Of a DNA stretch of 55,099 bases, positions 1 through 39,967 are shown piece after piece (positions within the stretch are counted from its first letter, which is position 1; every line of letters starts with the position of its first letter). The translations under genes and the position numbers were made by a program. The notes under the pieces are model-generated. The model saw only the letters and a list, made by a program, of their open reading frames with translations, was not told the origin of the DNA and did not search any database. Source of the stretch: a virus (Duplodnaviria; Caudoviricetes); the IMG/VR virus record IMGVR_UViG_3300020473_000035, positions 1-55,099 of that record. One strand, 5' to 3'.

Positions 1-58
1 AAAAACAAACACATTTGTATTTCCTTTATTTCTTTACGTCAAAAACTACCACTATCCA

Positions 59-181
59 CTACATACTCGCTTGTATAACACTGTGTATACTGGGTAACTC
101 AATGATACTACCAAGGATAATGAATAGAAGTATTGTTATTAGTAATGCCTGAAGGTATTCTATGTCTATGTGATCTCGCAT
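59..181 (-). CDS. 40-aa single-TM micropeptide
   Basis: Hand-translated MRDHIDIEYLQALLITILLFIILGSIIEL...; hydrophobic core; ATG 1 nt after upstream stop. Confidence 0.5.
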   Translation of the reverse strand: MRDHIDIEYLQALLITILLFIILGSIIELPSIHSVIQASM

Positions 182-182
182 G

Positions 183-263
183 TTAAATGTGTGGCCTCGT
201 GTGATACGCAATAATACCAATACTAATAGCGAGTATCAGTAACATTATTAACTCTGTGCTCAT
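183..263 (-). CDS. 26-aa single-TM micropeptide
   Basis: MSTELIMLLILAISIGIIAYHTRPHI; ATGA overlap with upstream ORF. Confidence 0.45.
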   Translation of the reverse strand: MSTELIMLLILAISIGIIAYHTRPHI

Positions 264-358
264 GTCATCCTCATTAAAGAACCAATGAAACCAAGGATCT
301 CGAAACGGTATTCCCACAAGACAATGGTTATAACCGCTGTAATCAATCTGTCTAACAT
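260..358 (-). CDS. 32-aa hydrophobic micropeptide
   Basis: MLDRLITAVITIVLWEYRFEILGFIGSLMRMT; GAGGAGG upstream. Confidence 0.5.
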   Translation of the reverse strand: MLDRLITAVITIVLWEYRFEILGFIGSLMRMT

Positions 359-359
359 T

Positions 360-698
360 TTACTCTTCTGTCCTCCTCTTGTTATTGTAATACGCTGTAC
401 CCTCGGCCATAAACATAAGCACACCGGGGGGAACTTCGCCGGATGTTGCGCCTCCATGCTTGATAATCAAGTCACGCACAACACCAACAGGCACGTATGG
501 ATAAACTGTATCAGTTGGATCGTTAAATGTTTCAGCATAACCGTCAAGCATAGGATCTGCACTGCTCGGAAAACCAAGCTCAACCTCAATATACGGTCCA
601 TAGTCATCACGCGGACAACTATACTTATGTTTACCTGCCTGGATAGATACACTATAACCATCTTGACAATAAACACGTCTATACTGCTTATTGTCCAT
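360..698 (-). CDS. hypothetical phage protein
   Basis: 112-aa ORF, overlaps upstream stop, GAGG RBS. Confidence 0.75.
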   Translation of the reverse strand: MDNKQYRRVYCQDGYSVSIQAGKHKYSCPRDDYGPYIEVELGFPSSADPMLDGYAETFNDPTDTVYPYVPVGVVRDLIIKHGGATSGEVPPGVLMFMAEGTAYYNNKRRTEE

Positions 699-894
699 CT
701 TTTCTTTCCTCGCTTATCGAGCTTATAACGTCCATTGCGTTCAGGCGAACCAGCGGAGTCCAGCCCGTATCAATGTGGATACGCGCACAATCAGCGTTAG
801 CGATACTTTTGAAACCTTTAACGATCCCCACTCTGCCGATTAAACCGCCAGCGCTACACCATTTATTTACGCGAACTAAATCACCGACTTTCAT
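688..894 (-). CDS. MKVGDLV-family small SH3/KOW-like protein
   Basis: MKVGDLVRV start, AGGAGA RBS, GIV strand. Confidence 0.75.
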   Translation of the reverse strand: MKVGDLVRVNKWCSAGGLIGRVGIVKGFKSIANADCARIHIDTGWTPLVRLNAMDVISSISEERKDGQ

Positions 895-1079
895 CATCTT
901 TCTCCTATATTGTAAAACCAACACCCAATAGAATAGGAGGTGCTTCCAACAAGATAAGATACACGATGATGCCACCGATAATCTTTATCATCGAATGGTA
1001 CGTCAAAAGCATCGAACCATCGAAAAGTAAACTCGCAAAATACGAATCCCAACCAATCTGTCAAATCACCGACTTTCAT
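894..1079 (-). CDS. small protein with MKVGD start (divergent body)
   Basis: Conserved junction GGAGGTTATCAATGAAAGTCGGTGAT. Confidence 0.65.
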   Translation of the reverse strand: MKVGDLTDWLGFVFCEFTFRWFDAFDVPFDDKDYRWHHRVSYLVGSTSYSIGCWFYNIGER

Positions 1080-1263
1080 TGATAACCTCCAACCATTTCT
1101 TGGGTTCCCAAGCTTGTTCTTGGTAATCAAACCAATACACACACACGCGAGTGTTACGAGGATCGCTGTAGTCTTTCATTTTGACCACCACGCCAAACTC
1201 GGCTTTGTTCCCTGCTTCTCGGCTGTACTCGCCAGGCATTATTACCAGATCACCGACTTTCAC
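1066..1263 (-). CDS. MKVGDLV-family small protein
   Basis: MKVGDLV...GVVV...LEVINESR; GTG start in junction motif. Confidence 0.8.
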   Translation of the reverse strand: MKVGDLVIMPGEYSREAGNKAEFGVVVKMKDYSDPRNTRVCVYWFDYQEQAWEPKKWLEVINESR

Positions 1264-1426
1264 TTATAACCTCCACAGGCTGAAGATGGTGACGAATAAC
1301 GGTCATTATAGAGCCATGCCAAAAGAGTCTTGCGACTGGCCGCCCGCGCTCTGAATGCCATCCGAGAATAATGCCGGTGCCCCGCACTGTTCCCCACTTG
1401 TGTTTGACCAGATCACCGACTTTCAT
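1250..1426 (-). CDS. MKVGDLV-family small protein (58 aa, not in ORF track)
   Basis: Hand-translated MKVGDLVKHKWGTVRGTGIILG...VEVISESR. Confidence 0.8.
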   Translation of the reverse strand: MKVGDLVKHKWGTVRGTGIILGWHSERGRPVARLFWHGSIMTVIRHHLQPVEVISESR

Positions 1427-1580
1427 CACTTACAACCTTCAGTTCCCACGGTCGAAACCACATACGTTGTTCGGGGAATCTCGCGAACACAATGCGAAAC
1501 AACGGGCCATCATGCTGCAACGCTTTCGCCATAACAACACCGAAACCATAGTCACAATGTACTATATCACCTATTTTCAC
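1413..1580 (-). CDS. MKVGDLV-family small protein (55 aa, not in ORF track)
   Basis: Hand-translated MKIGDIVHCDYGFGVVM...LKVVSDESR. Confidence 0.8.
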   Translation of the reverse strand: MKIGDIVHCDYGFGVVMAKALQHDGPLFRIVFARFPEQRMWFRPWELKVVSDESR

Positions 1581-1755
1581 TTACAACCTCCAATATAGCA
1601 TATGTCGCGGTGAAGCCTTCGCCGTCAAGACCGAGACAGTCATACGTCGTCACACTGCGCTCTTGAAAATAATCGAAGGACTCGCGCACTCTCACAATAA
1701 TACCCATCAAGTCGTCAGAGTGCCCGACAACACGCACCAGATCACCTATTTTCAC
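1567..1755 (-). CDS. MKVGDLV-family small protein
   Basis: MKIGDLVRV...GIIV...LEVVSENR. Confidence 0.8.
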   Translation of the reverse strand: MKIGDLVRVVGHSDDLMGIIVRVRESFDYFQERSVTTYDCLGLDGEGFTATYAILEVVSENR

Positions 1756-1909
1756 TTATAACCTCCCATTCGGTGGGATCGAGCCACCATGATCGCTTTC
1801 CTTTGTACTGTCCTTCAAGTTCAAAAACCTGATAGTGTCCCGGCATGACTTTGATAACAATCCCACGTGGGCCACCGTCTTTATACTGGACCAAATCACC
1901 GACTTCCAT
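1742..1909 (-). CDS. MKVGDLV-family small protein
   Basis: MEVGDLVQY...GIVI...WEVISENR. Confidence 0.8.
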   Translation of the reverse strand: MEVGDLVQYKDGGPRGIVIKVMPGHYQVFELEGQYKGKRSWWLDPTEWEVISENR

Positions 1910-2093
1910 TGGCAACCTCGTAATAGTTAGCATGATCGCGGATCACTCTCCCGTCCGTCAACAAGATCTGAATCAAGATACGCCCGCCGGGAAGGAAGCC
2001 GCTCCAACTCTTAAGCAAAACGCCCATATGACTTTCTCCATTATTGCGGATGATCCCCTCTTCATTGCTCTTGATCAGGTCGCCGATTTGCAT
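1896..2093 (-). CDS. MKVGDLV-family small protein
   Basis: MQIGDLIK...GVLL...YEVANGSR. Confidence 0.8.
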   Translation of the reverse strand: MQIGDLIKSNEEGIIRNNGESHMGVLLKSWSGFLPGGRILIQILLTDGRVIRDHANYYEVANGSR

Positions 2094-2305
2094 TAAACGC
2101 TTTCCTCCAAAGGTTTGAGGTGCTTACCGGGAATGTGAAACCCGTACATGATGCCATTAACAATAAAACGCACTTGGAAGTGGGGTAATCCGTCATCGGT
2201 CGCATCACCGGGGATCCATTCTTTAACCAGAAGCCCGATATTGCCCTCGATACGGGAATAACCCCGATCAGGGTGGACTTGAACCAGATCACCGACTTTG
2301 ATCAC
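2093..2305 (-). CDS. MKVGDLV-family small protein
   Basis: Probable GTG start MIKVGDLVQV after GGGAG; ORF can extend to 2419. Confidence 0.7.
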   Translation of the reverse strand: MIKVGDLVQVHPDRGYSRIEGNIGLLVKEWIPGDATDDGLPHFQVRFIVNGIMYGFHIPGKHLKPLEESV

Positions 2306-2410
2306 GCTCCCAGAAGCCCCCAGAGCGCCACAGGAGCCGCTTGAGCGGCTTGTACGACCCTGGACAGCCTGGAGGCGTGTGGAGTGCCCTGAAGGGCTTT
2401 GTGAGGCTTG
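2301..2410. other. 10-bp-phased GC repeat tract (candidate DNA-wrapping/strong gyrase site)
   Basis: cagaagcccc/cagagcgcca/caggagccgc/ttgagcggct...ggaggcgtgt/ggagtgccct/gaagggcttt/gtgaggcttg. Confidence 0.4.
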
Positions 2411-2415
2411 TACGC

Positions 2416-2625
2416 TCATGCGCTTGCAGGCTCCACGGTAGCGGCGAACACGTTGGCAAACTGCATCTCAAGATCGGGCGTCATGTTGCCATCGGCGCGG
2501 GTCTTCTGCATCTCCGCGAAAAGTCCCATTTGAAGCACCATAGCGTTCAGCGAGGTCTGGGCGCGCTCCAGGGGTCCGAGAGCGGGCTGGGTAGAAGTAG
2601 AGGAAGAAAGGGCTGTATCAGTCAT
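2416..2625 (-). CDS. hypothetical protein
   Basis: 69-aa ORF, GGAGA RBS. Confidence 0.7.
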   Translation of the reverse strand: MTDTALSSSTSTQPALGPLERAQTSLNAMVLQMGLFAEMQKTRADGNMTPDLEMQFANVFAATVEPASA

Positions 2626-2666
2626 TTAGTAGTCTCCGAGAAAGAAGAGGGAAGGAAAAGGTTTGT

Positions 2667-2951
2667 TTAGCCTTGCGCGAGGATCGCGGCAAGCTGGGCG
2701 GCGGTAAGGTGCTCAACGTTGATCGTCTTCACCTTGTGGACGGTGATCTCGGCTCCAGGCTTGCGAGCGGCGCGGATAGAGCCACCATCACAGGCAAGGA
2801 CGTATTCGCCACGGTTCGACTTGCGCGGACGGAAGGTGCCACCAGCCAGCTTGATACCTGCTTTCTTAGCGGCTGCGCGAATCTGGCGCTTGCCATCATT
2901 CCAAGAAACAGAGGAAGAACCAGGGGTAGAAGAGAGAAGTCCGATTTTCAT
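2667..2951 (-). CDS. small basic hypothetical protein
   Basis: First ORF downstream of promoter at 3008-3061; start MKIGLL chosen. Confidence 0.65.
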   Translation of the reverse strand: MKIGLLSSTPGSSSVSWNDGKRQIRAAAKKAGIKLAGGTFRPRKSNRGEYVLACDGGSIRAARKPGAEITVHKVKTINVEHLTAAQLAAILAQG

Positions 2952-3007
2952 AGGGTCAAAGTCCTGGGAAGGAGGGGAGCGACGGTTAAACCTCAACCGT
3001 CAAAGAC

Positions 3008-3061
3008 ATTATCTCACATGCGAACGAAAAGGTCAAGAGAAGTCTGTCAACTAAATGTCAA
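3008..3061 (-). promoter_or_regulatory. triple-TTGAC early promoter element A
   Basis: TTGACA-N5-TTGACA-N8-TTGACC-N17-GATAAT. Confidence 0.8.
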
Positions 3062-3279
3062 GAGATTTTCTCAACCCACATCGGGTGAAACTTCAGGATG
3101 GAAGTACCAAACTGGACACGGTATAGAATCTCGCCTTGTCTCCATGGGCGTTCGTCAGGCGCAACGACTTCCACGATCAAGCCCGTTCGGTGCGCGGGCA
3201 TGTCGGGGTCATGCGTACCTGGGCGGATCCTGACGAGATCGCCCACTTCCAAAGGTTTATTTCGGGTCTTCGTATCCAT
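3058..3279 (-). CDS. MKVGDLV-family small protein
   Basis: LEVGDLVRI...TGLIVEV...YRVQF. Confidence 0.75.
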   Translation of the reverse strand: MDTKTRNKPLEVGDLVRIRPGTHDPDMPAHRTGLIVEVVAPDERPWRQGEILYRVQFGTSILKFHPMWVEKIS

Positions 3280-3466
3280 CGGGGGTTGTTTGGGGCATCA
3301 AAAACGAAGGAACATACTCGTTTTCTGGGGTATACGGCTCAAGCTCCATAGGCGGGAGCGCTTCGAGGATCTGATCGAGGATGGCGCGAAGGTATGCAAT
3401 ATCCTCCTCGATCTCGGCGTCTTCCTTGGCTTTTCGGTACTCTGAAAGGTTTACAAGGTTGTCCAT
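3257..3466 (-). CDS. acidic hypothetical protein
   Basis: MDNLVNLSEYRK start with GAGG RBS, TAATG coupling. Confidence 0.7.
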   Translation of the reverse strand: MDNLVNLSEYRKAKEDAEIEEDIAYLRAILDQILEALPPMELEPYTPENEYVPSFLMPQTTPDGYEDPK

Positions 3467-3777
3467 TAGAACGGCACCTCTTCCATCCATCCAGTGCCGG
3501 AAAGCGGCGATACATCCCAGACTTTCGGGTGCATGACCAGATCAGCCACGCCCTTCGCCAGTCCGACATGAACGCTGGTGGTGTGGGACTGGAAAGTGCC
3601 GGTAGCAGCGGTGTAATCAGCGACAACGCACGCATTACCGGCGCGCATTCCGATCTTCAAGCCATACGAAAATAGAGCTTTGCCGTCTGTTGTCAGGGCG
3701 CGCTTGGAACTGTGTGCGGGCTGACCTTTAGACCAGCGCTCGATCACGCCACGGTTGTTTGTTCTGATTGATTTCAT
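3466..3777 (-). CDS. hypothetical protein
   Basis: 103-aa ORF, GAGG RBS. Confidence 0.75.
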   Translation of the reverse strand: MKSIRTNNRGVIERWSKGQPAHSSKRALTTDGKALFSYGLKIGMRAGNACVVADYTAATGTFQSHTTSVHVGLAKGVADLVMHPKVWDVSPLSGTGWMEEVPF

Positions 3778-3791
3778 AGGTTTGTCCTCTC

Positions 3792-5063
3792 TTATACGTC
3801 AATCGCGATGACGCGCTCTTGGGTTTGGAAGTAGGGGCGATCTGCATACTCTTTGGTGGTCATCCACATCCGTTGGCATGCGCTTGAAATGGGCTTTGGA
3901 GCCATCATATCGGTGAGGATGATGTGACCGTCAAAGTTGTGCTCATTGACATAGCGGGTGGGCGCATTAAAGCAGGTTCCACCGCACATAACGCGCTCCC
4001 ATACGCGGGTCTGACCTTTCTTCCAGACATAAATCTTGTCTTCACCGACCACTGAATCGAAGGGGATCACGGTGAACTCGGCAACATCGGCAAGCTCATT
4101 CAACTCGGAGAAGAACGCGGCAAGCATGCGATCATCCACGGATCCGCTTTGATCGATGCTAATGGCGATCTTGGCATGGCGACGAACGCGCTTGCCTGGG
4201 TGGATGCGAGGAAAACGACGGTTCAAGCGTCGAGGCGTGGAGCGGCGATCTGAACGCTGGGAGGTCTTGACGAAATAACGCAGTACCTTCCTCCAATCTA
4301 CGCGGGTGGTGATGCGGTCCATGATCTCTTTACGCATGCCAGCCGAAACAGATCCCCAGTTGCGGGCTTTCTCCGCGTCTTCTGCGGCTTTCTTGACGGC
4401 TTCCTTCAAGCGCTCTTTAGCGATCTCGTTCGCGGTGCCATCGGTGTCACCGAAAGCGTCGTGGTCGTCGAAAGAGTCCATTCCACCGAAAGGATCGCCA
4501 TTCCCAGGCTGACCCTGACCGCTTCCAGGCTCGCCGGGTTGCCCCTGACCATCGCCTTCGCCGCCCTCTGGATCGCCTTCGCCCATCTTCTTAAGAGCTT
4601 CCAGATACCATTCGTAAGTCATGTTTGCGGGAAGGTCAGCGAACGGTCCTTCGCCTGGAAGGCAGCCTTTCATCGGCTCGCCTGAAGGCATGAGAGGACC
4701 GGGATCGCTCTCACATGGCAGTTTGCCAACCATCTCGGGCAGACCGTTGATCGCAAGGTCCATCGCGATATTGTCGATGCGGCGGATGCCCTCGGAGGGC
4801 TTGCGACCCGTGACATGCTCCAGAATGATGTGATAGAACTCATGCATCAATACGCCAAGTTTATGCTCGTCTTTCAACTGGGCGAAGAACTCTGGATTGT
4901 ACATAAGCTCGAACTGCTGGCGATCAGGGTTGACGCGCACGCCAGCGGTCGGGATCGCGGTCGTCGGGGTCTTGTCGATCCGCCGCGACAACGACGCGAA
5001 AAACGGCTCCTGCATGAGCAGGCGAGCAGTGTGAAGATTAAGGTTGAAGGGGGCTTCAGACAC
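3792..5063 (-). CDS. metallopeptidase-VWA domain protein (DUF2201-like, MoxR partner)
   Basis: HEFYH zincin motif; DQSGS MIDAS, GGT and ILTD VWA motifs; G/E/P-rich linker. Confidence 0.85.
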   Translation of the reverse strand: MSEAPFNLNLHTARLLMQEPFFASLSRRIDKTPTTAIPTAGVRVNPDRQQFELMYNPEFFAQLKDEHKLGVLMHEFYHIILEHVTGRKPSEGIRRIDNIAMDLAINGLPEMVGKLPCESDPGPLMPSGEPMKGCLPGEGPFADLPANMTYEWYLEALKKMGEGDPEGGEGDGQGQPGEPGSGQGQPGNGDPFGGMDSFDDHDAFGDTDGTANEIAKERLKEAVKKAAEDAEKARNWGSVSAGMRKEIMDRITTRVDWRKVLRYFVKTSQRSDRRSTPRRLNRRFPRIHPGKRVRRHAKIAISIDQSGSVDDRMLAAFFSELNELADVAEFTVIPFDSVVGEDKIYVWKKGQTRVWERVMCGGTCFNAPTRYVNEHNFDGHIILTDMMAPKPISSACQRMWMTTKEYADRPYFQTQERVIAIDV

Positions 5064-5089
5064 GGGGCAACTCCTTGATCATATACCTA

Positions 5090-5143
5090 AGTATACAGGA
5101 AGAATCAAAAAAGGTCAAGCGATCTTTGTCAAGAGAATGTCAG
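5090..5143 (-). promoter_or_regulatory. triple-TTGAC early promoter element B
   Basis: CTGACA-N5-TTGACA-N8-TTGACC-N17-TATACT. Confidence 0.8.
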
Positions 5144-5421
5144 GACTGCTCATCTTCGTTAAAAGCGGCTTCGATCTCGGCAATGTCCGCCACGGTCATC
5201 TTCTTCTCGGCTTTTCGACGCTTGTTTTGAGCAGCCATCAGCTTGCGGTATCGGCTCGGAGTGTGCTTGCAAACGGCGATATTCTCGATTCCGATGCGCT
5301 CCATGCGTCGAAGGGATTCATTGGATGCCGCGAGAGTATCGGGCTTTGTAAGGATGGTTTCGGTCGCTTTGATGCGCCCGTCCACGATGGCGATGTCAGT
5401 TTTGCTCACGTAGTACTTCAA
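5140..5421 (-). CDS. hypothetical protein
   Basis: TTG start after AGGAGA, downstream of promoter C. Confidence 0.65.
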   Translation of the reverse strand: MKYYVSKTDIAIVDGRIKATETILTKPDTLAASNESLRRMERIGIENIAVCKHTPSRYRKLMAAQNKRRKAEKKMTVADIAEIEAAFNEDEQS

Positions 5422-5446
5422 GGTCGATCTCCTAACTTGATGTCTC

Positions 5447-5500
5447 ATTGTCTCATATGCGAGAGAGAAAGTCAAGGTTTTTTTGTCAAAGGAATGTCAA
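5447..5500 (-). promoter_or_regulatory. triple-TTGAC early promoter element C
   Basis: TTGACA-N5-TTGACA-N8-TTGACT-N17-GACAAT. Confidence 0.75.
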
Positions 5501-5560
5501 GAGAATGAGGGTCAATCTGGGTTCATGCGCGGCATGCCAGGAAGACCGAAAAGGTTTATT

Positions 5561-5660
5561 TGAGCGCTCTGTGAGGCTCCTGAAGGCTTGCTAACGGCTC
5601 CCAGGTATGACGACAGCCCAGAGCGCTCACAGGGGCTCACAGAGGCTCCTGGGCGCTGCT
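5561..5660. other. 10-bp-phased GCTC tract (candidate DNA-wrapping/strong gyrase site)
   Basis: GCT(C/T/G)/GCCC at 5566, 5576, 5586, 5597 then 5616, 5625, 5635, 5645, 5655. Confidence 0.45.
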
Positions 5661-5861
5661 ACGGCGGTACTCCGCAGCCAGTTGTAGATCGTGCTTCCAG
5701 AATGACCGTCCATTCTCGAAAACCCTGTAAAGACGCCGATCATCAGTGGATCCACGCCCATAGGTCGAGCGCCCACTTGGGCGACTTTCGAGGATAATAG
5801 CGGTTTTTCCTGTTTTAACACGGATTAGAAGCTCTCCAATCTCAAAGGTTTGTTTGTTCAT
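5637..5861 (-). CDS. SH3/KOW-like small protein (MKVGDLV-related)
   Basis: FEIGELLIRV...AIIL...YRVF. Confidence 0.7.
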   Translation of the reverse strand: MNKQTFEIGELLIRVKTGKTAIILESRPSGRSTYGRGSTDDRRLYRVFENGRSFWKHDLQLAAEYRRSSAQEPL

Positions 5862-6091
5862 AGGGGATCGCCCTCCTTGATCGGCATGAGCGCATCACCG
5901 TGAAAAATCATCTCCAAGCCGCTCTTTAACCACTTGATGCGGTATCTCGGCTTGAAAAGTCCATCACGAGCGACGACGCCCACAACCATGCCAGGACCAG
6001 ACTTTTCAGTAAAAGCTGAATCGGGCGATCCCCTCGCGAGGCGGTTGGTCATGTAGACCAACTCGCCCAGAGAGTAGTTGTAATCCTCCAT
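5858..6091 (-). CDS. SH3/KOW-like small protein (MKVGDLV-related)
   Basis: YSLGELVY...GMVVGV...YRIKW. Confidence 0.7.
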   Translation of the reverse strand: MEDYNYSLGELVYMTNRLARGSPDSAFTEKSGPGMVVGVVARDGLFKPRYRIKWLKSGLEMIFHGDALMPIKEGDPL

Positions 6092-7168
6092 TTAGCCACC
6101 CAGGATGGTCACCAAGTGCTCGCTAACACGGACGCCGCTGGTAGTGTCGGCTTTGTGGAGCGCGACCACGTTGGGGACCATATCAGCGTCACCCAGGACG
6201 GTCCAGAGCTTCATAGCCACCTCGGAAGGCAGGGAAACGAAGTAATCGGCGAGGTTCTTGATCTGAACGTCGGTGAGTTCCGTCTTGAAGGTTTCAGCCG
6301 CCTCGAACTTCTCGATCATGGCGGCGTGATCGTTGATGCCCCACTCGGAAGTCTTGGCGATCTCGCCGTTGTCCAGCAGATCTTCGATGGTCACTTGCCA
6401 GGAGTAGTTGACCACGAAGTCCTTCAGTTGAACAGCCGCCTCGAAACCGAGGAATGCATTGGCGAGGTTGAAAAGGAGATCGAGATCGCCCTTCTCCTCG
6501 AAAACGCCCGCTGGAGTAGCGGTATCGTTGAAGCGCTTCCAAGAGCGACGAGAAGGATAAACCTTGTTCGGCTCGAAGTCGCTGCGATGCTCCAAGTGGG
6601 TGCGGTTCTGGTTGATGAAGTCCCAAACGACGCTTGCAACCTTGCCATTCGCCCACTTGAGCCAATCTTCGTCAGACGGATCCACGTCGAAGACGGTCCA
6701 GCGGTCGAGTTCGGCGGGATCCATCTCACCGACTTGGTACTGGGCACCGTGCTCGCCACCGTTGACGGCAGCGATGATCAGGGTTTCAGGGTGAAGATGC
6801 CAGCCATTGATCTTGCGGCTATCGGTAAGCTCGAAAAGACCCTGGCGAACCTCCATAGTCGCGCGGTCGACCTCATCCAAGAACAGGACGACGGGCTGCT
6901 CGCAAGCGGTCACGAGCCAATCGGGAGCGTTCCACGTGGTAGCCTTGCGACCATTGATAGCGGTGTCCGCCGTATCTGGCAGACCGAGAAGATCGCCCTC
7001 GGTCATCTGGGAAGCGCGGCGCTCGACGACGGGAAGCTGGCGATCACGGGCGATCATGTAGACCACCTCGGATTTACCGACACCGTGACGACCACGGATA
7101 AGGACGGGCAAACGCGCATCGAGGATGTGGGGGGCGACAGAAAGGAAGGTGGCGAAGTCTACAGCCAT
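6092..7168 (-). CDS. MoxR-type AAA+ ATPase
   Basis: Walker A GRHGVGKS, Walker B LFLDEVDR, MDPAELDR, SRRSW sensor; near VWA gene. Confidence 0.9.
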   Translation of the reverse strand: MAVDFATFLSVAPHILDARLPVLIRGRHGVGKSEVVYMIARDRQLPVVERRASQMTEGDLLGLPDTADTAINGRKATTWNAPDWLVTACEQPVVLFLDEVDRATMEVRQGLFELTDSRKINGWHLHPETLIIAAVNGGEHGAQYQVGEMDPAELDRWTVFDVDPSDEDWLKWANGKVASVVWDFINQNRTHLEHRSDFEPNKVYPSRRSWKRFNDTATPAGVFEEKGDLDLLFNLANAFLGFEAAVQLKDFVVNYSWQVTIEDLLDNGEIAKTSEWGINDHAAMIEKFEAAETFKTELTDVQIKNLADYFVSLPSEVAMKLWTVLGDADMVPNVVALHKADTTSGVRVSEHLVTILGG

Positions 7169-7211
7169 GTGGTTTCTCCAGGGGAGTGTGAAGTTTTTAG
7201 CTTACTCTGTA

Positions 7212-7265
7212 AGTATACAGGAAGAAAGAAAGAAGGTCAAGTGTTTTTTGTCAAGAGGGTGTCAA
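7212..7265 (-). promoter_or_regulatory. triple-TTGAC early promoter element D
   Basis: TTGACA-N5-TTGACA-N8-TTGACC-N17-TATACT. Confidence 0.8.
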
Positions 7266-7274
7266 GCCTCGATT

Positions 7275-7496
7275 TTACCCATTGCAGGCGGGATGACCCC
7301 AGTTGTTATACTGCCAATCGCTGATCTCTTGATCTTTGCACAGGCTATCAGTCCAGTTGTTCCACGCTTCGCGGCGAGCGGGATAATCGGGATCGCCGTC
7401 GCGCTCCCATCGCTCTTGGATCAGGGGGAGAATGTGAACCTCGAAATATGCACATGCATCCTCGAAGGTCATGACGTAGGGAAGGTTTTTAGCCAT
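7275..7496 (-). CDS. hypothetical phage protein
   Basis: MAKNLPY start after AGGAG; AWNNWTDSLCKD motif. Confidence 0.75.
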   Translation of the reverse strand: MAKNLPYVMTFEDACAYFEVHILPLIQERWERDGDPDYPARREAWNNWTDSLCKDQEISDWQYNNWGHPACNG

Positions 7497-7527
7497 TGGC
7501 GAACTCCTATTGCTCAATGATGGATCC

Positions 7528-7581
7528 ATTATCTCATAGGCGAGAAGAAAGATCAAGGGTTTTTTGTCAGGTAAATGTCAA
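7528..7581 (-). promoter_or_regulatory. triple-TTGAC early promoter element E
   Basis: TTGACA-N5-CTGACA-N8-TTGATC-N17-GATAAT. Confidence 0.75.
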
Positions 7582-7612
7582 GAGTGAAAAGAGTAGGAAG
7601 AAAGTATTAAAA

Positions 7613-7792
7613 GAGGTGGTGGGGAGTGCCGCTGTCCTCGTCGCGCCACATGACCAGCCGCGTTTTCACTGCCCGCTGTGGGGCGCGCTCACCTAAGCCC
7701 CCATTCCCGAAGGCCTTATTATCCTTACAGTGAGCAAGGGTTCATTCACGGCTTTGAACCCCGGTTTACATTAAAAATCTCCCCACCACCTC
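7613..7792 (-). ncRNA. putative structured ncRNA (~180 nt, unclassified)
   Basis: Perfect 14-bp closing inverted repeat (7613-7626/7779-7792), three internal stems, UUCG and GAAA tetraloops on minus strand, U-run after. Confidence 0.6.
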
Positions 7793-7835
7793 ATTACAGG
7801 CCACTTTATAGATCGCGCATAATACGCTTTCCTCC

Positions 7836-8645
7836 TTATTTCTTCTTCTTTGGGGTGCGAGCGCGCTTAAGCTGGCGCTCCTCGCAGATAAAGGTTTGCG
7901 CTCCACCGATGGGAAGGAGCTTATAGAGCTTGTTTCCGCGTGCTGCGCTGGTGGGCACTGCGATATTGGTGGCGATCACCATCGCGAGATTGTCTTTGTT
8001 AGGGCAGCTTTGAGATTGTGCGTAGGTCGCACCAGCACCAAGGGCCACCATGCTCCCCACTGCATATTTCGGCTCGGCAAACCACCCAGCGTAGATCTTA
8101 CGGATGAACTTGTTATCAGTCACGCGGTTGTACTCGTCCATAGTGGGAACCATGGAAGTATCAGCGAAATAAGCGGCCACCTGTTTGCCGTAATACCCGC
8201 TGCTGCGGTAGTATGACATGGCAATAGCATAGCGCTCTGCTTTCTCGTCATTCCACGCGGCATACCACTGATCGCGGGCGTCCATAGCTTCATCGCTGTA
8301 TTTCCCCTGGATCTTCTCCAGAATCTCCTTCTGACGCTCGGAAAGGTTGCGGCCGCCCAAAAGCTGGGTTCGGATGCTGCTAACAAAGCGGTCATCCCAT
8401 GAGCCGTTGTCCACAGCGGACACGCGCCCCTTGAGCACGTTGATCTCGTCCAGACCCTCGGCAGGTTCGGGGCGCGTAGCATAGCGCTCTTCCATCTGGA
8501 CGAAGCAGCGACGGCGGCCAGCGGTCAGTGAACCCTTGCGCTTGTAGTGGCTGTAAAGGCTCTCCGCAAAGCTGCGATCCCGGTCGGAAACGTAGTCTTT
8601 CGCGAGAAGGGCAGCGAAGCGGTCATGGTAGGTAGTGCGGGGCAT
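7836..8645 (-). CDS. hypothetical protein, two helical repeats plus C-terminal SH3-like domain
   Basis: DRSFAESL..SLTAGR / DDRFVSSI..NLSERQ repeat; YAVGSMV C-terminal domain; AGGAG RBS. Confidence 0.8.
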   Translation of the reverse strand: MPRTTYHDRFAALLAKDYVSDRDRSFAESLYSHYKRKGSLTAGRRRCFVQMEERYATRPEPAEGLDEINVLKGRVSAVDNGSWDDRFVSSIRTQLLGGRNLSERQKEILEKIQGKYSDEAMDARDQWYAAWNDEKAERYAIAMSYYRSSGYYGKQVAAYFADTSMVPTMDEYNRVTDNKFIRKIYAGWFAEPKYAVGSMVALGAGATYAQSQSCPNKDNLAMVIATNIAVPTSAARGNKLYKLLPIGGAQTFICEERQLKRARTPKKKK

Positions 8646-10289: not shown

Positions 10290-10579
10290 GCCTCATCAAG
10301 CCCGTCCCAGTGGGCATCTACGAAGCGCTTGGTATTCCGCAGTGCGGAAAGCTCTGGATCCTCGCCGTTTATTTTGGCGCTGGCCACCTGTGCCTCACAC
10401 TCACGTGCAAAGGCGCGGATAAACTTGATCAGTGCGATCTTGCCAAATGCCGCTTTCTTGCCTGTGATCTGACCGCCATAGGGCGGGCGCACGTGCCTCT
10501 TGTGAAGCATCAGCGCGATCTTATAGGCATCATCCAACCCTTTGGTGTCGTCGGTGTCGAGCACAATCGTCATTTTCAT
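10286..10579 (-). CDS. hypothetical protein
   Basis: MKMTIVLD start after GGAGG; KIALIKFIR...LRNTKRFVD weakly reminiscent of L7/L12 C-terminal motif. Confidence 0.7.
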   Translation of the reverse strand: MKMTIVLDTDDTKGLDDAYKIALMLHKRHVRPPYGGQITGKKAAFGKIALIKFIRAFARECEAQVASAKINGEDPELSALRNTKRFVDAHWDGLDEA

Positions 10580-10755
10580 ATTACTACCTCCAGTTCCGTC
10601 CATGGATGGAGCGTGTCTTTCCCAGACGCATCCACTGGACCATTGACGAGCTTGTACCAAGTATTGTCATGATCCTCGGCCACCAGAAAGATGCCCGGTG
10701 TGTTAGGATCCTTGAATCTGACGAGATCGCCCACCTTAATAAATCGCGTCTTCAT
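10576..10755 (-). CDS. MKVGDLV-family small protein (not in ORF track)
   Basis: Hand-translated MKTRFIKVGDLVRFKD...ELEVVI. Confidence 0.75.
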   Translation of the reverse strand: MKTRFIKVGDLVRFKDPNTPGIFLVAEDHDNTWYKLVNGPVDASGKDTLHPWTELEVVI

Positions 10756-10907
10756 GATACCACCTCTATGCCCTCGTAGTGGATGTTATAGCCGCATGCT
10801 GGGCGGCCACTGGCGAACCAGCACACCAGAAAAGAGAGCTTGTGAAGCTCAACGACAACGCCCATCTCGCCGGTACTCTTCCAACGAACCAGATCACCGA
10901 CTTTCAT
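10752..10907 (-). CDS. MKVGDLV-family small protein (not in ORF track)
   Basis: MKVGDLVRWKSTGEMGVVVE...IEVVS. Confidence 0.75.
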   Translation of the reverse strand: MKVGDLVRWKSTGEMGVVVELHKLSFLVCWFASGRPACGYNIHYEGIEVVS

Positions 10908-11074
10908 TGACTCACAACCTCAAGATCACAGGGGGAAGCAATAGTCCTATGTTCAACGTCCAAGCGCTTGACCACATAATCAAGCCCAAGAGGGCAGCTA
11001 TGAAGCCCAACGATCAAGGCGAGTTTCCACCCTTCATATTTGGTTTTAACCTTCACGAGATCGCCGACTTTCAT
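10904..11074 (-). CDS. MKVGDLV-family small protein (not in ORF track)
   Basis: MKVGDLVKVKTK...LEVVSQ. Confidence 0.75.
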   Translation of the reverse strand: MKVGDLVKVKTKYEGWKLALIVGLHSCPLGLDYVVKRLDVEHRTIASPCDLEVVSQ

Positions 11075-11214
11075 AACCTAACCTTCTTCCGGCACAAAGT
11101 TTTGTTTGCTTGCTTCTTGCGATCTGGGTGTCGCCCTCCACCACTGCGATTTCTCGCAAAGGCTTGGACTGCCAACCAGTTGCGCGTTTTCGGGGCTTTA
11201 ACCTTCTTTTTCAT
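11071..11214 (-). CDS. 47-aa highly basic peptide
   Basis: MKKKVKAPKTRNWLAV...GGGRHPDRKK; ATGA-coupled on both sides. Confidence 0.65.
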   Translation of the reverse strand: MKKKVKAPKTRNWLAVQAFARNRSGGGRHPDRKKQANKTLCRKKVRL

Positions 11215-11309
11215 AGCACTGGCTCCATTAGGTAGACGAACCACCAACCAAAATACATCATTCCGCCAAGCATGGCGACAGCCAAAAAGTCTTCAAGTTG
11301 CTCTTTCAT
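11211..11309 (-). CDS. 32-aa membrane micropeptide
   Basis: MKEQLEDFLAVAMLGGMMYFGWWFVYLMEPVL; GGAG RBS. Confidence 0.55.
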   Translation of the reverse strand: MKEQLEDFLAVAMLGGMMYFGWWFVYLMEPVL

Positions 11310-11315
11310 ACTGGT

Positions 11316-11675
11316 TTATTCTCCCTTCAACATCTTGATGCGGCGGACTTGCGCCAGTGATCCCGTTCTAATCTCGAACTCGCCAAAAGCCTCGGCAGCA
11401 CGCGCACGTTGGCGGGCGCGGAGCTTCATCAGTTCACGGGCTTCTACGCCCGCATTGAACATTTCATCCTCACAACTCACCGGGGAATCTCCCCAGCCAT
11501 CGTGATGGCCGGAACTTTCCGCGAGCAGATCATCGCGAAGCTCGTTGAACTCGTTGATCTCGTCGGCTTGTTCCGCAGTCGGAAGACAGCCGCTCATCAA
11601 CGAATGGGTGTGGGTGTCAAGCGCGGTCATGATCATCTCAAGCTCGCGAGGGGTGAAGGTAATAGTGCGGTTCAT
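11316..11675 (-). CDS. hypothetical protein
   Basis: MNRTITFTPRE start after GAGG; N-terminus resembles 8722-8901. Confidence 0.75.
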   Translation of the reverse strand: MNRTITFTPRELEMIMTALDTHTHSLMSGCLPTAEQADEINEFNELRDDLLAESSGHHDGWGDSPVSCEDEMFNAGVEARELMKLRARQRARAAEAFGEFEIRTGSLAQVRRIKMLKGE

Positions 11676-11701
11676 GTGGTCCTCTCTCAAAGTGTGAACC
11701 T

Positions 11702-11755
11702 ATTATCTCATAGGCGAAGGGGGAAGTCAAGGTTTATTTGTCAAGCAAATGTCAA
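11702..11755 (-). promoter_or_regulatory. triple-TTGAC early promoter element I
   Basis: TTGACA-N5-TTGACA-N8-TTGACT-N17-GATAAT. Confidence 0.8.
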
Positions 11756-11934
11756 AGGATCTGGAGATCTTTAGGAAGGAAGGGGCGAGGGTGATTATTG
11801 CTGACCTTCACGTTGCTCATGAAGTATACGTGGCAAATGTTGCCCCACAAGCCAGTTTTTACGATCAGCCCGATAGTTCCCTTTGGAATACCGATACTGG
11901 CGCGTGTAATCTTTACCAAGTCACCGACTTTCAT
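11752..11934 (-). CDS. MKVGDLV-family small protein
   Basis: MKVGDLVKI...GLIV. Confidence 0.8.
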   Translation of the reverse strand: MKVGDLVKITRASIGIPKGTIGLIVKTGLWGNICHVYFMSNVKVSNNHPRPFLPKDLQIL

Positions 11935-12124
11935 TGACTGCCTCCAGATATTTCCAACTGATTTGCCGAACGGGCCACTTAGTAACTCCATTCCACAATA
12001 CCTCGGCAGAGTTATATGCGGGATGGATACCCTCTTTCATCTCATGAAAGAAGATCCTCAACACAACGCCCATACCAAGCCTATCACCGGAACCCGTGTA
12101 TCTCACCAGATCACCGACTTGCAT
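11921..12124 (-). CDS. MKVGDLV-family small protein
   Basis: MQVGDLVRY...GVVL...LEAVNESR. Confidence 0.8.
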   Translation of the reverse strand: MQVGDLVRYTGSGDRLGMGVVLRIFFHEMKEGIHPAYNSAEVLWNGVTKWPVRQISWKYLEAVNESR

Positions 12125-12296
12125 TGATTGTCTCCAATGAATCTATGCGAAAGAAGCGCACGGGCATGCCTTTATAGGTCACGCGCGCATGCTCACCGTC
12201 GAGACAAATGGCAGTTACCAACATCGGTACACCGATAAGAGAGCCTTGGTAGCCACGCGCGATTTTTCGAGGAGTGACCAAATCACCGACTTGCAT
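12111..12296 (-). CDS. MKVGDLV-family small protein
   Basis: MQVGDLVT...LETINASR. Confidence 0.8.
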   Translation of the reverse strand: MQVGDLVTPRKIARGYQGSLIGVPMLVTAICLDGEHARVTYKGMPVRFFRIDSLETINASR

Positions 12297-14051: not shown

Positions 14052-14239
14052 GAGGAAGATATGATGTTGCGGATCTGCGAGCGACTGACAAGTCCAAAGG
14101 TTTGTTTGCCGTCGTTAATGGTGAAAAGCACATCACCTGCGCGTTGAACAGTGCCGATAATGATCCCCCGCCTCATGGTTGTGAAGGTTCGTCCTGATGG
14201 ATGGTAAGTCTCGAAGGAAACATAATCACCGACTTTCAT
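14048..14239 (-). CDS. MKVGDLV-family small protein
   Basis: MKVGDYVSF...GIII. Confidence 0.8.
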   Translation of the reverse strand: MKVGDYVSFETYHPSGRTFTTMRRGIIIGTVQRAGDVLFTINDGKQTFGLVSRSQIRNIISSS

Positions 14240-14477
14240 TTTGGTTTGCCCCTTTGACCCTGATCTTTATGTAGTCTTCCACGCTCAAGTAATAATAGGA
14301 AGCATCTTCGATGATCCCCTCGGTCGGATGAGCAACTTTTAAGACGGGATAATCCACATCAGCCCAGCCCATGCTGGCATCGTCGGGTTTGCCGAAATAC
14401 GGACCTTCGTAAATGTCAAGGATGGTACACCATCCCGTGGGCATTCTGTCCTGCCAAACTAAATCGCCAATGTTCAT
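14226..14477 (-). CDS. MKVGDLV-family small protein
   Basis: MNIGDLVWQ...NESR. Confidence 0.75.
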   Translation of the reverse strand: MNIGDLVWQDRMPTGWCTILDIYEGPYFGKPDDASMGWADVDYPVLKVAHPTEGIIEDASYYYLSVEDYIKIRVKGANQNESR

Positions 14478-14656
14478 TTCATCACCTCGCATTGCCAGGA
14501 TACCCAGCCGACTTCTTTGCCGCCGCAAAGCACGATAATGTCGCTCCATTGAGAGGACGTTTTGTGTCCGTTCTTTGGCATGTGCCTAATAAGTAGTCCA
14601 ACATGAGCAGTGTCATTGATGTAATCGTAAAATCTAATCAGATCACCGGGTCTCAT
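14474..14656 (-). CDS. MKVGDLV-family small protein
   Basis: MRPGDLIRF...GLLI...CEVMK. Confidence 0.75.
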   Translation of the reverse strand: MRPGDLIRFYDYINDTAHVGLLIRHMPKNGHKTSSQWSDIIVLCGGKEVGWVSWQCEVMK

Positions 14657-14879
14657 TGCTTTCCTCCTCAACTATAGTAAGATAATGAACCAGCAAACCT
14701 TGCGCCAGTTCGCCCGACTTTGCAAACCAAACATTGCACTGGTAGTTATCAGCGCTGATAATAGGTTGTCCAGTTGCACAGTGATGATCATCTATATGTA
14801 CCACAATCCCCAGCCCATGGGTGTCGTTGATAGTTGTGCCATAACGATCATTCCATCTAACTAAATCTCCCACCTTCAT
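14643..14879 (-). CDS. MKVGDLV-family small protein
   Basis: MKVGDLVRW...GIVV...NETR. Confidence 0.8.
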   Translation of the reverse strand: MKVGDLVRWNDRYGTTINDTHGLGIVVHIDDHHCATGQPIISADNYQCNVWFAKSGELAQGLLVHYLTIVEEESNETR

Positions 14880-18379: not shown

Positions 18380-18784
18380 TCAGTCTACTTTTTTTAGCCA
18401 TTCGGCGGGATACCACCCAGAATTCCGTCTAATCTGTATTTGTTCATATTCTGACGGGCGTTTAAGCCACTGAACGCGCACAAAGTTTACTTTCGCTCCT
18501 TGTTCTACGGGCTTAAGGGGTCGATATGAATGAAATGAGTTGTACCTTAAAAATGCTTCAGCCACTTCTACAGGTAAGCCGCATTCCTCAATAAATGTTG
18601 AACAGGCAGCATTGCGCTGCTGCCAAGTGTGGCCGCCCTCTCTCGTTTTATATAAAGAACACAGCGCATCGGGCACTTTCATTTCCTTTACAACATCTTC
18701 GATGTGTATAGTAACCAGGCCAATTCCTGGCTGTTTTCGTCTAAACAGTTTGACCAAATCGCCAACCTGCACAGTTTTTTTCAT
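18380..18784 (-). CDS. MKVGDLV-related protein with insertion
   Basis: VQVGDLVKL...GIGLV...VRVQW; AAGGAG RBS. Confidence 0.75.
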   Translation of the reverse strand: MKKTVQVGDLVKLFRRKQPGIGLVTIHIEDVVKEMKVPDALCSLYKTREGGHTWQQRNAACSTFIEECGLPVEVAEAFLRYNSFHSYRPLKPVEQGAKVNFVRVQWLKRPSEYEQIQIRRNSGWYPAEWLKKVD

Positions 18785-28486: not shown

Positions 28487-30058
28487 CTACTCCGTTTGAA
28501 TAATACCATAATTAGTGGTTATCAAGGTTCCAGCGCAACTTACAGCATTTTGTAATGCCGTTTTAGTTACCTTAACTGGATCTATAATGCCGCTTTCGTA
28601 GAGATTCACTAATTCATCATTGCGAAAATCCCAACCGCTGTCATTAGGGGCGTCGAGAACGTTCTTAATTATAATGTCAGCGGAAAAACCAGCATTGTGC
28701 GCCATCTGTCGCAAAGGCGCGCGGCATGCAGCCTGAATAATACCGCCTGCCATAGCCTGTTCGGCACTTTCAGTTTTCATCACCAGTGTGTTGCTGGCTC
28801 TGAGTAATGCAGTGCCTCCGCCACCAACGATTCCTTCCTGCTGTGCAGACCTAACCGCTTCAAGAGCATCCTCAATTCGATGCTTCTTTTCGGTCATCTC
28901 CACTTCGGTTGCACCGCCGACGCGGATAACCGCCACTCCAGAAGATAAACGAACAATACGATCTTGAATTTGTTCGCATGCCTGAAGCGATTCCGTTTGT
29001 TCAATCAAAGCTTTGAGTTGTTCAATCTGCTCTTCGATTTGTTTATGGTCGCCATGGCCTCCCACTACAGTTGTAGAATATTTGGTGCTCTCGATAAACT
29101 TTGCAGTACCCAAATGTTCCATCTTGACTTCTTGAAGCTTCACTCCACTCTCGCGAGTGATAAAGGTGGCACCAACAGAAAGCGCCAGATCATGCATTGT
29201 GTTGCGCCGCTCTTCGCCATATCGTGGAGCCTTGATCCCTGCAATCTTCATAGTGCCCCTCATGGCATTCATGATGAGTGCGGCCAACGCCTGACCCTCG
29301 ATGTCTTCGGCTACGATAACCAAGGGGCGACCCTCTCTTGCGGCCATCTCTAGAATGGGGAGAATTTGTTCAACAGTGTTAATCTTATAGTCAGTCACCA
29401 GCAGCAAAGGCTCGTCATGATACATCATTGCCCTGCGCTCATCATTAATGAAAGCTCCAGCACAGTAGCCTGCATCAAGTTTGAAGCCTTCGGTAACATC
29501 CAAAGACGTTTCAAGCGAACGCGATTCTTCGATTGTGATAGAGCCATCTTGGCCCACACGATCAACTGCCATGGCAATCAGTTCTCCAATCGTCGTGTCG
29601 TTATTGGCAGAAATAGCAGCGACATGTCTAATGTCCTCAATGCTCGTGACAGGCTTGGCTGCAGCCTTAAGGTTGTTGACAACTTCCTTCGCAGCAATCC
29701 CCAGGCCACGCTGTAATTCTGTAGGTGGTATACCAGCCAGAATATATTTTTGGGCTTCTGTAAGGATAGCTCTGGCCAGCACAGTAGCCGTAGTGGTGCC
29801 GTCACCAGCATCACTATTCGTCTGGATTGCGGCTTGCTTAATCACCTGCGCTCCAGCGTTCTCAAACGGATCCTCCAACGCAACAAATTGTGCGACGGTA
29901 ACACCATCCTTCGTAATGAATGGCGCTTTTCCCTTCTCTTGGAGTAAAACGTTTCGACCTTTCGGTCCTAAAGTTGATGCCACGTTGTCTGCTAATGTGT
30001 TGGCACCCTTAATAATCTTTTGTTGAAGTGTGTCTTTACTCTCATATGCTCTGCTCAT
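28487..30058 (-). CDS. groEL: chaperonin GroEL (phage-encoded)
   Basis: LGPKGRNV, ITKDGVTVA, GDGTTTATV, GIIDPVKV; no GGM tail. Confidence 0.97.
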   Translation of the reverse strand: MSRAYESKDTLQQKIIKGANTLADNVASTLGPKGRNVLLQEKGKAPFITKDGVTVAQFVALEDPFENAGAQVIKQAAIQTNSDAGDGTTTATVLARAILTEAQKYILAGIPPTELQRGLGIAAKEVVNNLKAAAKPVTSIEDIRHVAAISANNDTTIGELIAMAVDRVGQDGSITIEESRSLETSLDVTEGFKLDAGYCAGAFINDERRAMMYHDEPLLLVTDYKINTVEQILPILEMAAREGRPLVIVAEDIEGQALAALIMNAMRGTMKIAGIKAPRYGEERRNTMHDLALSVGATFITRESGVKLQEVKMEHLGTAKFIESTKYSTTVVGGHGDHKQIEEQIEQLKALIEQTESLQACEQIQDRIVRLSSGVAVIRVGGATEVEMTEKKHRIEDALEAVRSAQQEGIVGGGGTALLRASNTLVMKTESAEQAMAGGIIQAACRAPLRQMAHNAGFSADIIIKNVLDAPNDSGWDFRNDELVNLYESGIIDPVKVTKTALQNAVSCAGTLITTNYGIIQTE

Positions 30059-32331: not shown

Positions 32332-32958
32332 TCATATAATTTCGTCAGCGATGCCATATTCAACTGCTTGTTCTGCAGATAAATAGATGTTAACTTTTTG
32401 TTCCAGCAACTTTTTGAGTTGCTTTTTGGTCATTTTTGTTTCCTCTACTAAACGTTCTATGTACATTTCTTGCAGGTCTTGGATTGCTTCCATCTCATTA
32501 ATAAGGTTGTGAAGCGGTCCCTGGTTGCCTGCAATAACTGAATGTAGCATCACTCGGCAATTGCGACCAATCTTTCTTTTGCCCTTGGTTCCACCTGCAA
32601 GAATCAACACACCAGCCGACATAACTTTACCCATGCCGATAACGCTGATATCTGTGTCGTTCTCAATAATCTTCATCATGTCATAGAGGGCAAACATATC
32701 ATCTGCAGACCCTCCATAGGTTGATAGATAAAACTCAATGTCTTTTCTCTTCTTCTCGTCTTCTTCTGCTTTATTCATCTCGTTCATAAACAACATTGCG
32801 TGAATAATCTCGGCAATCTTCTCATCTACGATCTCGGAAAACAATCCGACAACCCGTAAATCAGGCTCTCTAGAGCCGCCAGAGGCATCCATAAGAATAA
32901 TCTTTTGCTCTTCTTCCTCTATAATACTGGCGAGCTTATCTTTTAAACGTTTAATCAT
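32332..32958 (-). CDS. clpP: ClpP-like peptidase 1
   Basis: STYGGS, GKVMSAG (Ser), VMLHS (His), YLSAEQAVEYGIADEI; start MIKRLK after AAAGGA. Confidence 0.9.
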   Translation of the reverse strand: MIKRLKDKLASIIEEEEQKIILMDASGGSREPDLRVVGLFSEIVDEKIAEIIHAMLFMNEMNKAEEDEKKRKDIEFYLSTYGGSADDMFALYDMMKIIENDTDISVIGMGKVMSAGVLILAGGTKGKRKIGRNCRVMLHSVIAGNQGPLHNLINEMEAIQDLQEMYIERLVEETKMTKKQLKKLLEQKVNIYLSAEQAVEYGIADEII

Positions 32959-32959
32959 A

Positions 32960-39938: not shown

Positions 39939-39967
39939 AATATATCAGATACAGTATTGGTTGTCAA
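39939..39967 (-). promoter_or_regulatory. sigma70-type promoter
   Basis: TTGACA-N17-TATATT. Confidence 0.65.

Follow-up and report, generated by a model that had tools for sequence, protein, structure and literature searches.

Can a row of very small phage genes with no intergenic DNA between them gain, lose and exchange members while the genes stay intact? The question is raised by positions 688-2305 of IMGVR_UViG_3300020473_000035, the 55,099-bp record of a Caudoviricetes virus that is estimated to be about 30% complete and whose full length is referred to here as the window. The locus holds nine consecutive head-to-tail open reading frames (ORFs) of 55-70 amino acids (aa), as the original prediction had described them, and we place them on the minus strand, which carries nearly all long ORFs of the window. 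We consider it highly probable that the locus is a tandem array of SH3-like barrel paralogues in which the conserved junction between neighbours is where ordinary recombination exchanges whole cassettes. As far as our search of openly accessible full texts shows, the arrangement is undescribed; it returned no published account of the family or of the junction.

Anatomy of the dual-coding junction

On the coding strand the junction reads (T/C)TGGAGGTT(A/G)T(A/C)A-(A/G)TG-AAA-GTC-GGT-GAT-CTG-GT, and it is translated twice, as ..L-E-V-I-S/N-E-S-R-stop in the frame of the upstream gene and as M-K-V-G-D-L-V in the frame of the downstream gene. For example, GAG GTT ATA AGT GAA AGT CGG TGA encodes EVISESR*, with GTG AAA GTC GGT GAT CTG GT (MKVGDLV) embedded in the same stretch. 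Five signals are stacked in this way: the last strand of the upstream protein, LEV[IV]; a Shine-Dalgarno (SD) sequence within its Glu-Val codons, in which GGAGGT sits 5-6 nucleotides (nt) ahead of the start codon; the start codon itself; the first strand of the downstream protein, KVGDLV; and the upstream stop within the Gly-Asp codons, written GGT-GA. The two strands are the most constrained portions of the family. This anatomy is well supported, and the dual coding that had been proposed for the junction is borne out in both reading frames.

Six of the eight internal junctions of the array overlap by exactly 14 nt (starts at 1909, 1755, 1580, 1426, 1263 and 1079), so that an overlap predicted to be fixed is the rule with two exceptions, a TAATG junction with a 1-nt overlap at 2093 and an ATGA junction with a 4-nt overlap at 894/897. 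The common motif of about 30 nt is likewise real, since none would be expected by chance (0.00 in 100 shuffles), but the 30-mer as first written fits only two places in the window within three mismatches, and the motif is therefore degenerate. Its best copy, at 1242-1275 on the minus strand, comprises the SD sequence GGAGGT, a GTG start, the KVGDLV codons and the upstream TGA. The second copy within three mismatches of the 30-mer, at 1736-1765 on the same strand, has an 18-nt identical run in common with the junction at 1566-1583.

The same geometry recurs throughout the family. An exact 14-nt overlap joins 231 of 486 consecutive family gene pairs, whereas 24 pairs overlap by 4 nt and 7 by 10 nt, and an upstream ORF of 45 codons or more reaches 14 nt into 311 of the 490 unique family genes. 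The overlap is fixed because the upstream TGA lies inside the invariant Gly-Asp written GGT-GA, which also explains why all 311 overlapped genes (311/311) use GGT. On the upstream side, of 179 genes followed by a family gene, 175 have Glu exactly 7 residues from the end; the Glu codon, which forms the SD core, is GAG in 170/179, compared with 42% GAG in gene bodies, and an SD-like tetramer precedes 280 of the 311 overlapped starts. Codon 3 ends in C or A in no fewer than 283/311 overlapped genes, and the upstream protein then ends in Arg. The junctions are more uniform at synonymous positions than constraint in a single frame would leave them, as the original prediction had noticed, but most of the shared positions have plain causes: the stop for GGT, the SD core for GAG, and the C-terminal Arg for the C or A in the third base of Val/Ile-3. 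The C-terminal tail is itself a by-product of the overlap, whatever the upstream gene, since in one related locus (L046, 1856-2023) a basic, non-family-like ORF (MARKRNK...) stops in the GGT-GA of a family gene and thereby gains a ..DENR tail.

The array has the co-directional overlap of stop and start, with the SD sequence inside the upstream gene, that characterizes translationally coupled overlapping gene pairs with termination-reinitiation, as reportedly described by Huber et al. (2019; PMC6728339). Usual overlaps in such pairs are ATGA (4 nt) and TGATG (1 nt), whereas the family norm is 14 nt, owing to the location of the stop in the invariant Gly-Asp codons. A further difference is that GTG starts are frequent, with 144 among 311 overlapped genes as against 13/167 other family genes (loci L005-L075), which would fit re-initiation by terminating ribosomes. 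We infer that the genes are translationally coupled in this manner, so that ribosomes finishing one gene would re-initiate on the next.

All nine cassettes lie on the minus strand and are numbered here from the 2305 end. Cassette 1 (2093-2305; MIKVGDLV...) probably starts at the GTG at 2305, a longer ORF from the ATG at 2419 being possible, and its TAA stop overlaps the next ATG by 1 nt. Cassette 2 (1896-2093; MQIGDLI...EVANGSR) stops within the GGT-GA of cassette 3, with a 14-nt overlap, and cassette 3 (1742-1909; MEVGDLV...EVISENR) has the same overlap on its downstream side. GTG starts open cassette 4 (1567-1755; KIGDLV...EVVSENR), cassette 5 (1413-1580; KIGDIV...VVSDESR), which has a 78%-identical relative in a different phage (L043), and cassette 7 (1066-1263; KVGDLV...EVINESR), whose protein was used for the structure model described below; between the last two lies cassette 6 (1250-1426; MKVGDLV...EVISESR). 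Cassette 8 (894-1079) combines the family N-terminus MKVGDL with an aberrant, low-GC (guanine plus cytosine) body without a relative (0 BLASTP hits), and could be DNA of foreign origin, or DNA in decay, that is carried along between its two junctions. It also holds a hydrophobic 35-codon ORF in another frame (905-1012). Cassette 9 (688-897, with the start at 894 or 897; M-MKVGDLV...) is joined to cassette 8 by the ATGA-type overlap, closes the array and is devoid of a family-type tail.

Gain, loss and exchange of cassettes

Because the same 25-33-nt sequence returns every 150-230 nt, recombination from junction to junction would alter the array by whole cassettes. In the mechanism that we propose, general homologous or short-homology recombination between junctions would delete, duplicate, replace or move whole cassettes, and every product would keep an intact ribosome-binding site, start and stop. 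The enzymes would be general recombination functions of the phage or its host, and no dedicated recombinase would take part.

Variation of this kind is found in the population of the window's own phage. Contigs from four marine metagenome runs were compared with window positions 1-5100. In two runs from different studies (X8 and X9), contigs skip 1566-1740, which is exactly one 175-nt junction-to-junction period and removes cassette 4. At this joint (1565->1741) 18 nt fit both sides, the window having an 18-nt identical run at 1566-1583 and 1741-1758. Contigs from runs X12 and X8 are without 886-1079, that is, without cassette 8. Dozens of other contigs match just the junction at 1242-1275 and are unlike the window on both sides; joints and loose ends with short sides (20-30 nt) were not counted, being other contigs that share only the junction motif.

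For the window array itself these contigs gave breakpoints and the IMG/VR relatives did not: when its DNA is compared with 57 loci that have the same flanking gene, almost nothing aligns, though the flanking protein is 70-83% identical. Gene content varies widely: the 3.8 kb that follow the common flanking gene hold 10 family genes in the window and from 0 to 9 in 43 relatives. Closer pairs of relatives reveal individual events. Loci L026 and L065 are 99% identical, and 60 of their 65 differences in 1.6 kb are confined to one cassette body; both of its borders fall into junctions (about 30 nt each) that the two loci share letter for letter, and the flanks beyond are free of differences for more than 500 nt in either direction. 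On this alignment the difference is an allelic cassette swap. In the same pair, the neighbouring cassette has given way to a copy (78%) of a paralogue from 10 kb away, with the left border directly past the MKVSDLV codons. One cassette is present in one and absent from the other of L039 and L041 (95%), with the crossover within the EV(I/V)S/SD codons, and a single cassette occupies different array positions in L021 and L062, its ends lying at -12 and +13 of starts. A census of 59 non-redundant loci gave 143 homology endpoints at most 100 nt away from a family start, and 105 of these are in the interval -20..+19 around it, against an expectation of 20%.

The original prediction had suggested that the borders of gain, loss and replacement be located in aligned relatives. 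They lie in the junction motif, both in relatives and in contigs of the window's phage; array content is far from invariant, and the breakpoints are not random. Cassette-level change is shown by the aligned relatives together with the population variants, and several independent comparisons support, at the level of sequence, an exchange of cassettes at the junctions.

The alternative that survives best assigns the junction no role in recombination. It would be conserved merely for its two strands, SD sequence, start and stop; illegitimate recombination at random points, or ordinary tandem duplication, would give rise to the cassette-bounded differences once selection has removed the products with broken genes. 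Each junction element does have a direct translational or structural reason. Since there is no intergenic DNA, selection alone could leave only cassette-bounded events, and since it could filter the survivors, breakpoints at junctions are no proof of mechanistic targeting.

Further observations also count against the mechanism that we propose. The census endpoints are not independent, as one event can be counted once for each partner and again in further relatives, and alignments are drawn into the junction by the conservation of the motif. Some events have no homology at one border: the right border of the L026 replacement is at a non-homologous position and results in a chimeric ORF, and in the 885->1080 variant 15 unrelated letters stand in place of cassette 8, so that this event is not clean. 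Homogenisation of junctions is weak, with a similarity of 67.5% within a genome and 64.7% between genomes. Close relatives also differ by small indels inside cassette bodies and by one non-family block, which are not bound to junctions. L046 (1577-1791) and L047, 99.8% identical, differ by a 215-nt indel that is not junction-bound either; it is ruled out as a family cassette event, as it is an intergenic stretch with a 43-codon non-family ORF. Finally, codons 2-7 differ from body usage also in 88 members without an overlapping upstream ORF, with GTC in 37/68 Val codons (20% expected, p = 3e-12) and GGT in 49/88 Gly codons (30% expected, p = 9e-7). This residual bias lies beyond the dual-coding explanation and could be either inherited from junction-bearing ancestors or due to selection on the initiation region.

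On the other side stand the 175-nt deletion, which has 18 identical nt at both borders and was found in two studies, and the L026/L065 swap, which starts and ends in identical junctions. Moreover, the close pairs examined show no disrupted in-body cassette breakpoints except for the one chimeric right border. We consequently regard a junction without any recombinational role as unlikely, and prefer to see it as the site at which general recombination exchanges cassettes.

A second alternative is a dedicated site-specific system, in which an unrecognised recombinase or homing nuclease would use the junction motif as its site and the locus would be a true integron-like platform. The motif is uniform across distant phages, with exact matches to the degenerate 25-26-mer in 14 viral contigs and 10 contigs of metagenome-assembled genomes (MAGs), and the synonymous bias just described remains where no overlap constrains it. 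We nevertheless consider such a system very improbable. PHROG scans of 30 window ORFs and Pfam scans of 10 turned up neither an IntI-type integrase nor another recombinase, in a record that covers about 30% of the genome and not the whole phage. Junction RNA has neither conserved secondary structure nor excess folding (mean z-score +0.26 over 120 junctions), and no attC-like folded site was found at the junctions with the RNA folding parameters used. In addition, the crossover point varies in the motif, from the EV codons to a position after the DLV codons and to the inside of the 18-nt run.

That the cassette variants are spurious, made when metagenomes were assembled across a short repeat, is hardly credible: the comparative data are all assembled contigs and repeats are a known source of mis-joins, but a mis-join at 1565->1741 is unlikely because the 18-nt run is shorter than the 31-letter words with which the contigs were indexed and, we assume, assembled, the joint recurs in two studies, and the swapped L026/L065 allele is a diverged homologue in identical flanks rather than a mis-join.

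A family of predicted small barrels

The gene bodies had been called almost unrelated, which does not hold. The array genes are old, deeply diverged paralogues. They belong to a single unnamed family whose members have about 60 aa and are predicted to fold as five-stranded SH3-like beta-barrels. BLASTP matches between the window's cassettes and members from other phages were obtained for 15 of 19 and reach E values down to 1e-32. A profile of bodies only, made from 121 members from other phages with both conserved termini cut off, scores seven of eight array bodies above the 95th percentile of 200 shuffles and four of the eight above the best shuffle. The body of cassette 2 (1896-2093) scores 0.4 bits, which is noise level, and the cassette at 894-1079, whose body has no relative, was excluded from this comparison. 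Nor are the bodies hypervariable in the sense of a mutational process: the ratio of nonsynonymous to synonymous substitution rates (dN/dS) is about 0.21 over 31 ungapped orthologue-like pairs, from which it follows that they are real proteins under purifying selection and not hypermutated units. The same value argues against hypermutation by a diversity-generating retroelement, at which no search was aimed.

An AlphaFold2 model of 1069-1263 on the minus strand, computed from 134 aligned sequences, has a predicted local distance difference test score (pLDDT) of 92 and a predicted template-modelling score (pTM) of 0.77, with five strands at residues 6-9, 22-30, 39-44, 49-54 and 59-62. The best Foldseek matches to this model are all small barrels (PetP, KOW, Tudor, PWWP, SAWADEE, chromo and SH3), with template-modelling (TM) scores of 0.6-0.72 and E values that are all at least 0.038, as is usual for folds of 60 residues. 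The family profile finds weak matches among the PDB chain sequences, all of them to SH3-like barrels. The predicted fold is well supported and would place the family in the structural class of SH3-like small beta-barrels. The array proteins have in common with KOW, Tudor, PWWP, chromo, PetP and SH3 domains the five-stranded barrel and the length of about 60 residues; in contrast to these they stand alone, are massively expanded in arrays and have no significant membership in any Pfam family.

In the window, the N-terminal signature of the family is found in 19 ORFs and reaches 18.8 kb. The regular expression for family starts gave 20 matches, of which 19 are family-like and the one on the plus strand at 6347 is spurious. 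Ten of the ORFs lie outside the array, between 3058 and 18772, all on the minus strand. An isolated member at 3058-3252 is conserved in position, with orthologues of 58-65% identity behind the same DUF2201 flanking gene in L019, L026 and L065. Two short further arrays occupy 10576-12296 with six members (starts at 10740, 10907, 11074, 11934, 12124 and 12296), two longer members of 83 and 78 aa at 14226-14879 end in ..NESR and ..NETR, and at 18380-18772 a 130-aa protein joins the N-terminal domain of the family, with its signature, to an extension.

All 72 loci together hold 759 family genes, 490 of them unique, and a profile search of 1.84 billion protein representatives returned 7,698 clusters at 50% identity (E<=0.001). 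The 26-nt degenerate junction pattern picked out 14 viral contigs in IMG/VR, every one with arrays, which reach 25 or more genes in 10 kb. Among species-representative genomes it occurred in 10 MAG contigs only, of inconsistent taxa; these are most simply phage contigs wrongly binned, and they were dropped as a clue to the host. Fused forms also occur, with two family domains in one ORF of 126-129 aa, and longer proteins of up to 1,570 aa have 4-6 stretches matching the family profile; overall these proteins contain 2-6 tandem domain copies, and P0001, P0002, P0003, P0014, P0036 and P0064 are among them. Cassettes can thus also merge into repeat proteins.

The family came only from viral records, metagenomes and MAG contigs in this analysis. 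With Pfam, 10 window proteins gave sub-threshold matches only, the best to DUF2158 (E 0.04, 14.1 bits against a cut-off of 22.3), and 134 members gave no convincing match, with two unrelated single hits at E>0.002; PHROGs matched merely two of the 134 at E<=0.001. The 69 homologues listed from a collection of 5.8 billion are all unnamed or 'hypothetical' and metagenome-derived, and the nearest clusters in the ESM Atlas are viral and without Pfam assignment. Cultured phages carrying the mini-barrel family were not found at the sensitivity used, neither by a DNA search of window positions 1-8000 nor by tblastn with one cassette protein, each of which returned zero matches.

As to function, which we infer, our guess is that the phage makes the proteins early in infection as a diversified set of binders, directed at components of the host or of defence systems; we hold it with low confidence. 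The isoelectric points of the members are spread widely (39% acidic, 40% basic), which rules out a uniform signature of DNA mimics or nucleic-acid binders.

Known systems, genomic setting and significance

By analogy, the closest described mechanism is modular shuffling mediated by promoter-early stem-loop (PeSL) elements, which Comeau et al. in 2014 reportedly described for T4-type phages. We compare the array with PeSLs as they are presented in an earlier study (Arbiol et al., 2010; PMC2839356), where they are intergenic elements of about 100 bp that comprise a promoter and a terminator stem-loop and flank unrelated ORFans in T4-type phages, and where PeSL mini-circles are demonstrated. On that basis, both systems place a short conserved sequence beside many small, non-essential, fast-turning-over ORFs; insertions, deletions and replacements of single ORFs between close relatives map to the repeats; and a gene that is moved by recombination from repeat to repeat is again provided with a functional expression signal. 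In contrast to PeSLs, the array repeat is 25-33 nt long, codes in two frames, contains SD sequence, start and stop, is without predicted structure and joins members of one protein family. It is also no intergenic promoter with a terminator stem-loop: a consensus scan of window positions 1-6000 gave 12 promoter-like sites against 5.5 expected, none of them associated with a junction, and terminators at chance level.

The original prediction had likened the array to an integron that shuffles without an integrase. The exchange of cassettes at junctions agrees with this, as do the row of small co-oriented cassettes, the content that varies between relatives and the repeat at each border, but the comparison is one of analogy only, given that no integrase was found among the ORFs scanned and no attC-like site at the junctions. 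Moreover, the cassettes of the array all belong to one family, overlap and would be read through by coupled translation, and their repeat is coding. The likeness to clustered regularly interspaced short palindromic repeats (CRISPR), which had also been drawn, is no more than an analogy, as its repeats encode protein and purifying selection acts on its units, which are homologous ORFs; no cas-like hits were found among the 30 window ORFs scanned.

The phage is a member of a marine clade that is uncultured and whose contigs reach about 200 kb. Sequencing runs that contain the array stretch are all marine metagenomes, and no RNA runs are listed among them. The gene flanking the array codes for a DUF2201/VWA protein (3792-5063) and has 57 related loci, whose contigs are at most about 200 kb long; cultured relatives of this protein and of the window's DnaE-like polymerase are only distant, at 32% identity or less. 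The GC fraction is uneven along the record, with 0.41-0.49 in the array region (window 1-3000), 0.52-0.57 in the next 8 kb and then again about 0.42-0.46. An ORF at 39964-40950 on the minus strand matches a PHROG of the adenylosuccinate-synthetase type, annotated as '2-aminooxy adenylosuccinate synthetase' (E 1e-63), and its product is presumably PurZ-like. Beside it, at 39179-39643 and 37186-38482, are a dUTPase/dCTP-deaminase-like ORF and two DNA-methyltransferase-like ORFs, and the group may be a base-modification module. The window also codes for a GroEL-like chaperonin (28487-30058), the DnaE-like polymerase (42340-45762) and two ClpP/head-protease-like proteins (32332-33042 and 41729-42334).

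The arrangement is real and widespread: hyperdiverse phage mini-proteins, with a predicted SH3-like fold, stand in arrays that would be translationally linked, and their cassettes are gained, lost and exchanged at a common dual-coding junction. A bolder reading, which we put forward as doubtful, is that the junction evolved as a 'plug-and-play' adaptor, in which one dual-coding sequence of 25-33 nt would serve as ribosome-binding site, start, stop and portable recombination site. A whole clade of marine phages could then exchange and use thousands of SH3-like mini-binders from a common pool, which would probably act in counter-defence or host takeover. If true, this would amount to an integron-like cassette economy that is run by general recombination, without an integrase.

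The family comprises at least 7,698 clusters at 50% identity without a Pfam or PHROG model or a name in the sources searched, and it accounts for an appreciable part of what an abundant marine phage clade encodes: the 55 kb of the window hold 19 of its genes, and elsewhere 10 kb can hold 25 or more. With two of its strands fixed, its loops free and its expression signals contained in the junction, a small, stable barrel of this kind lends itself to libraries of binders and to polycistronic expression. For the question of whether phage mosaicism arises by homologous exchange at conserved boundaries or by illegitimate recombination followed by selection, the arrays offer hundreds of natural replicates in which the boundary is defined to the nucleotide.

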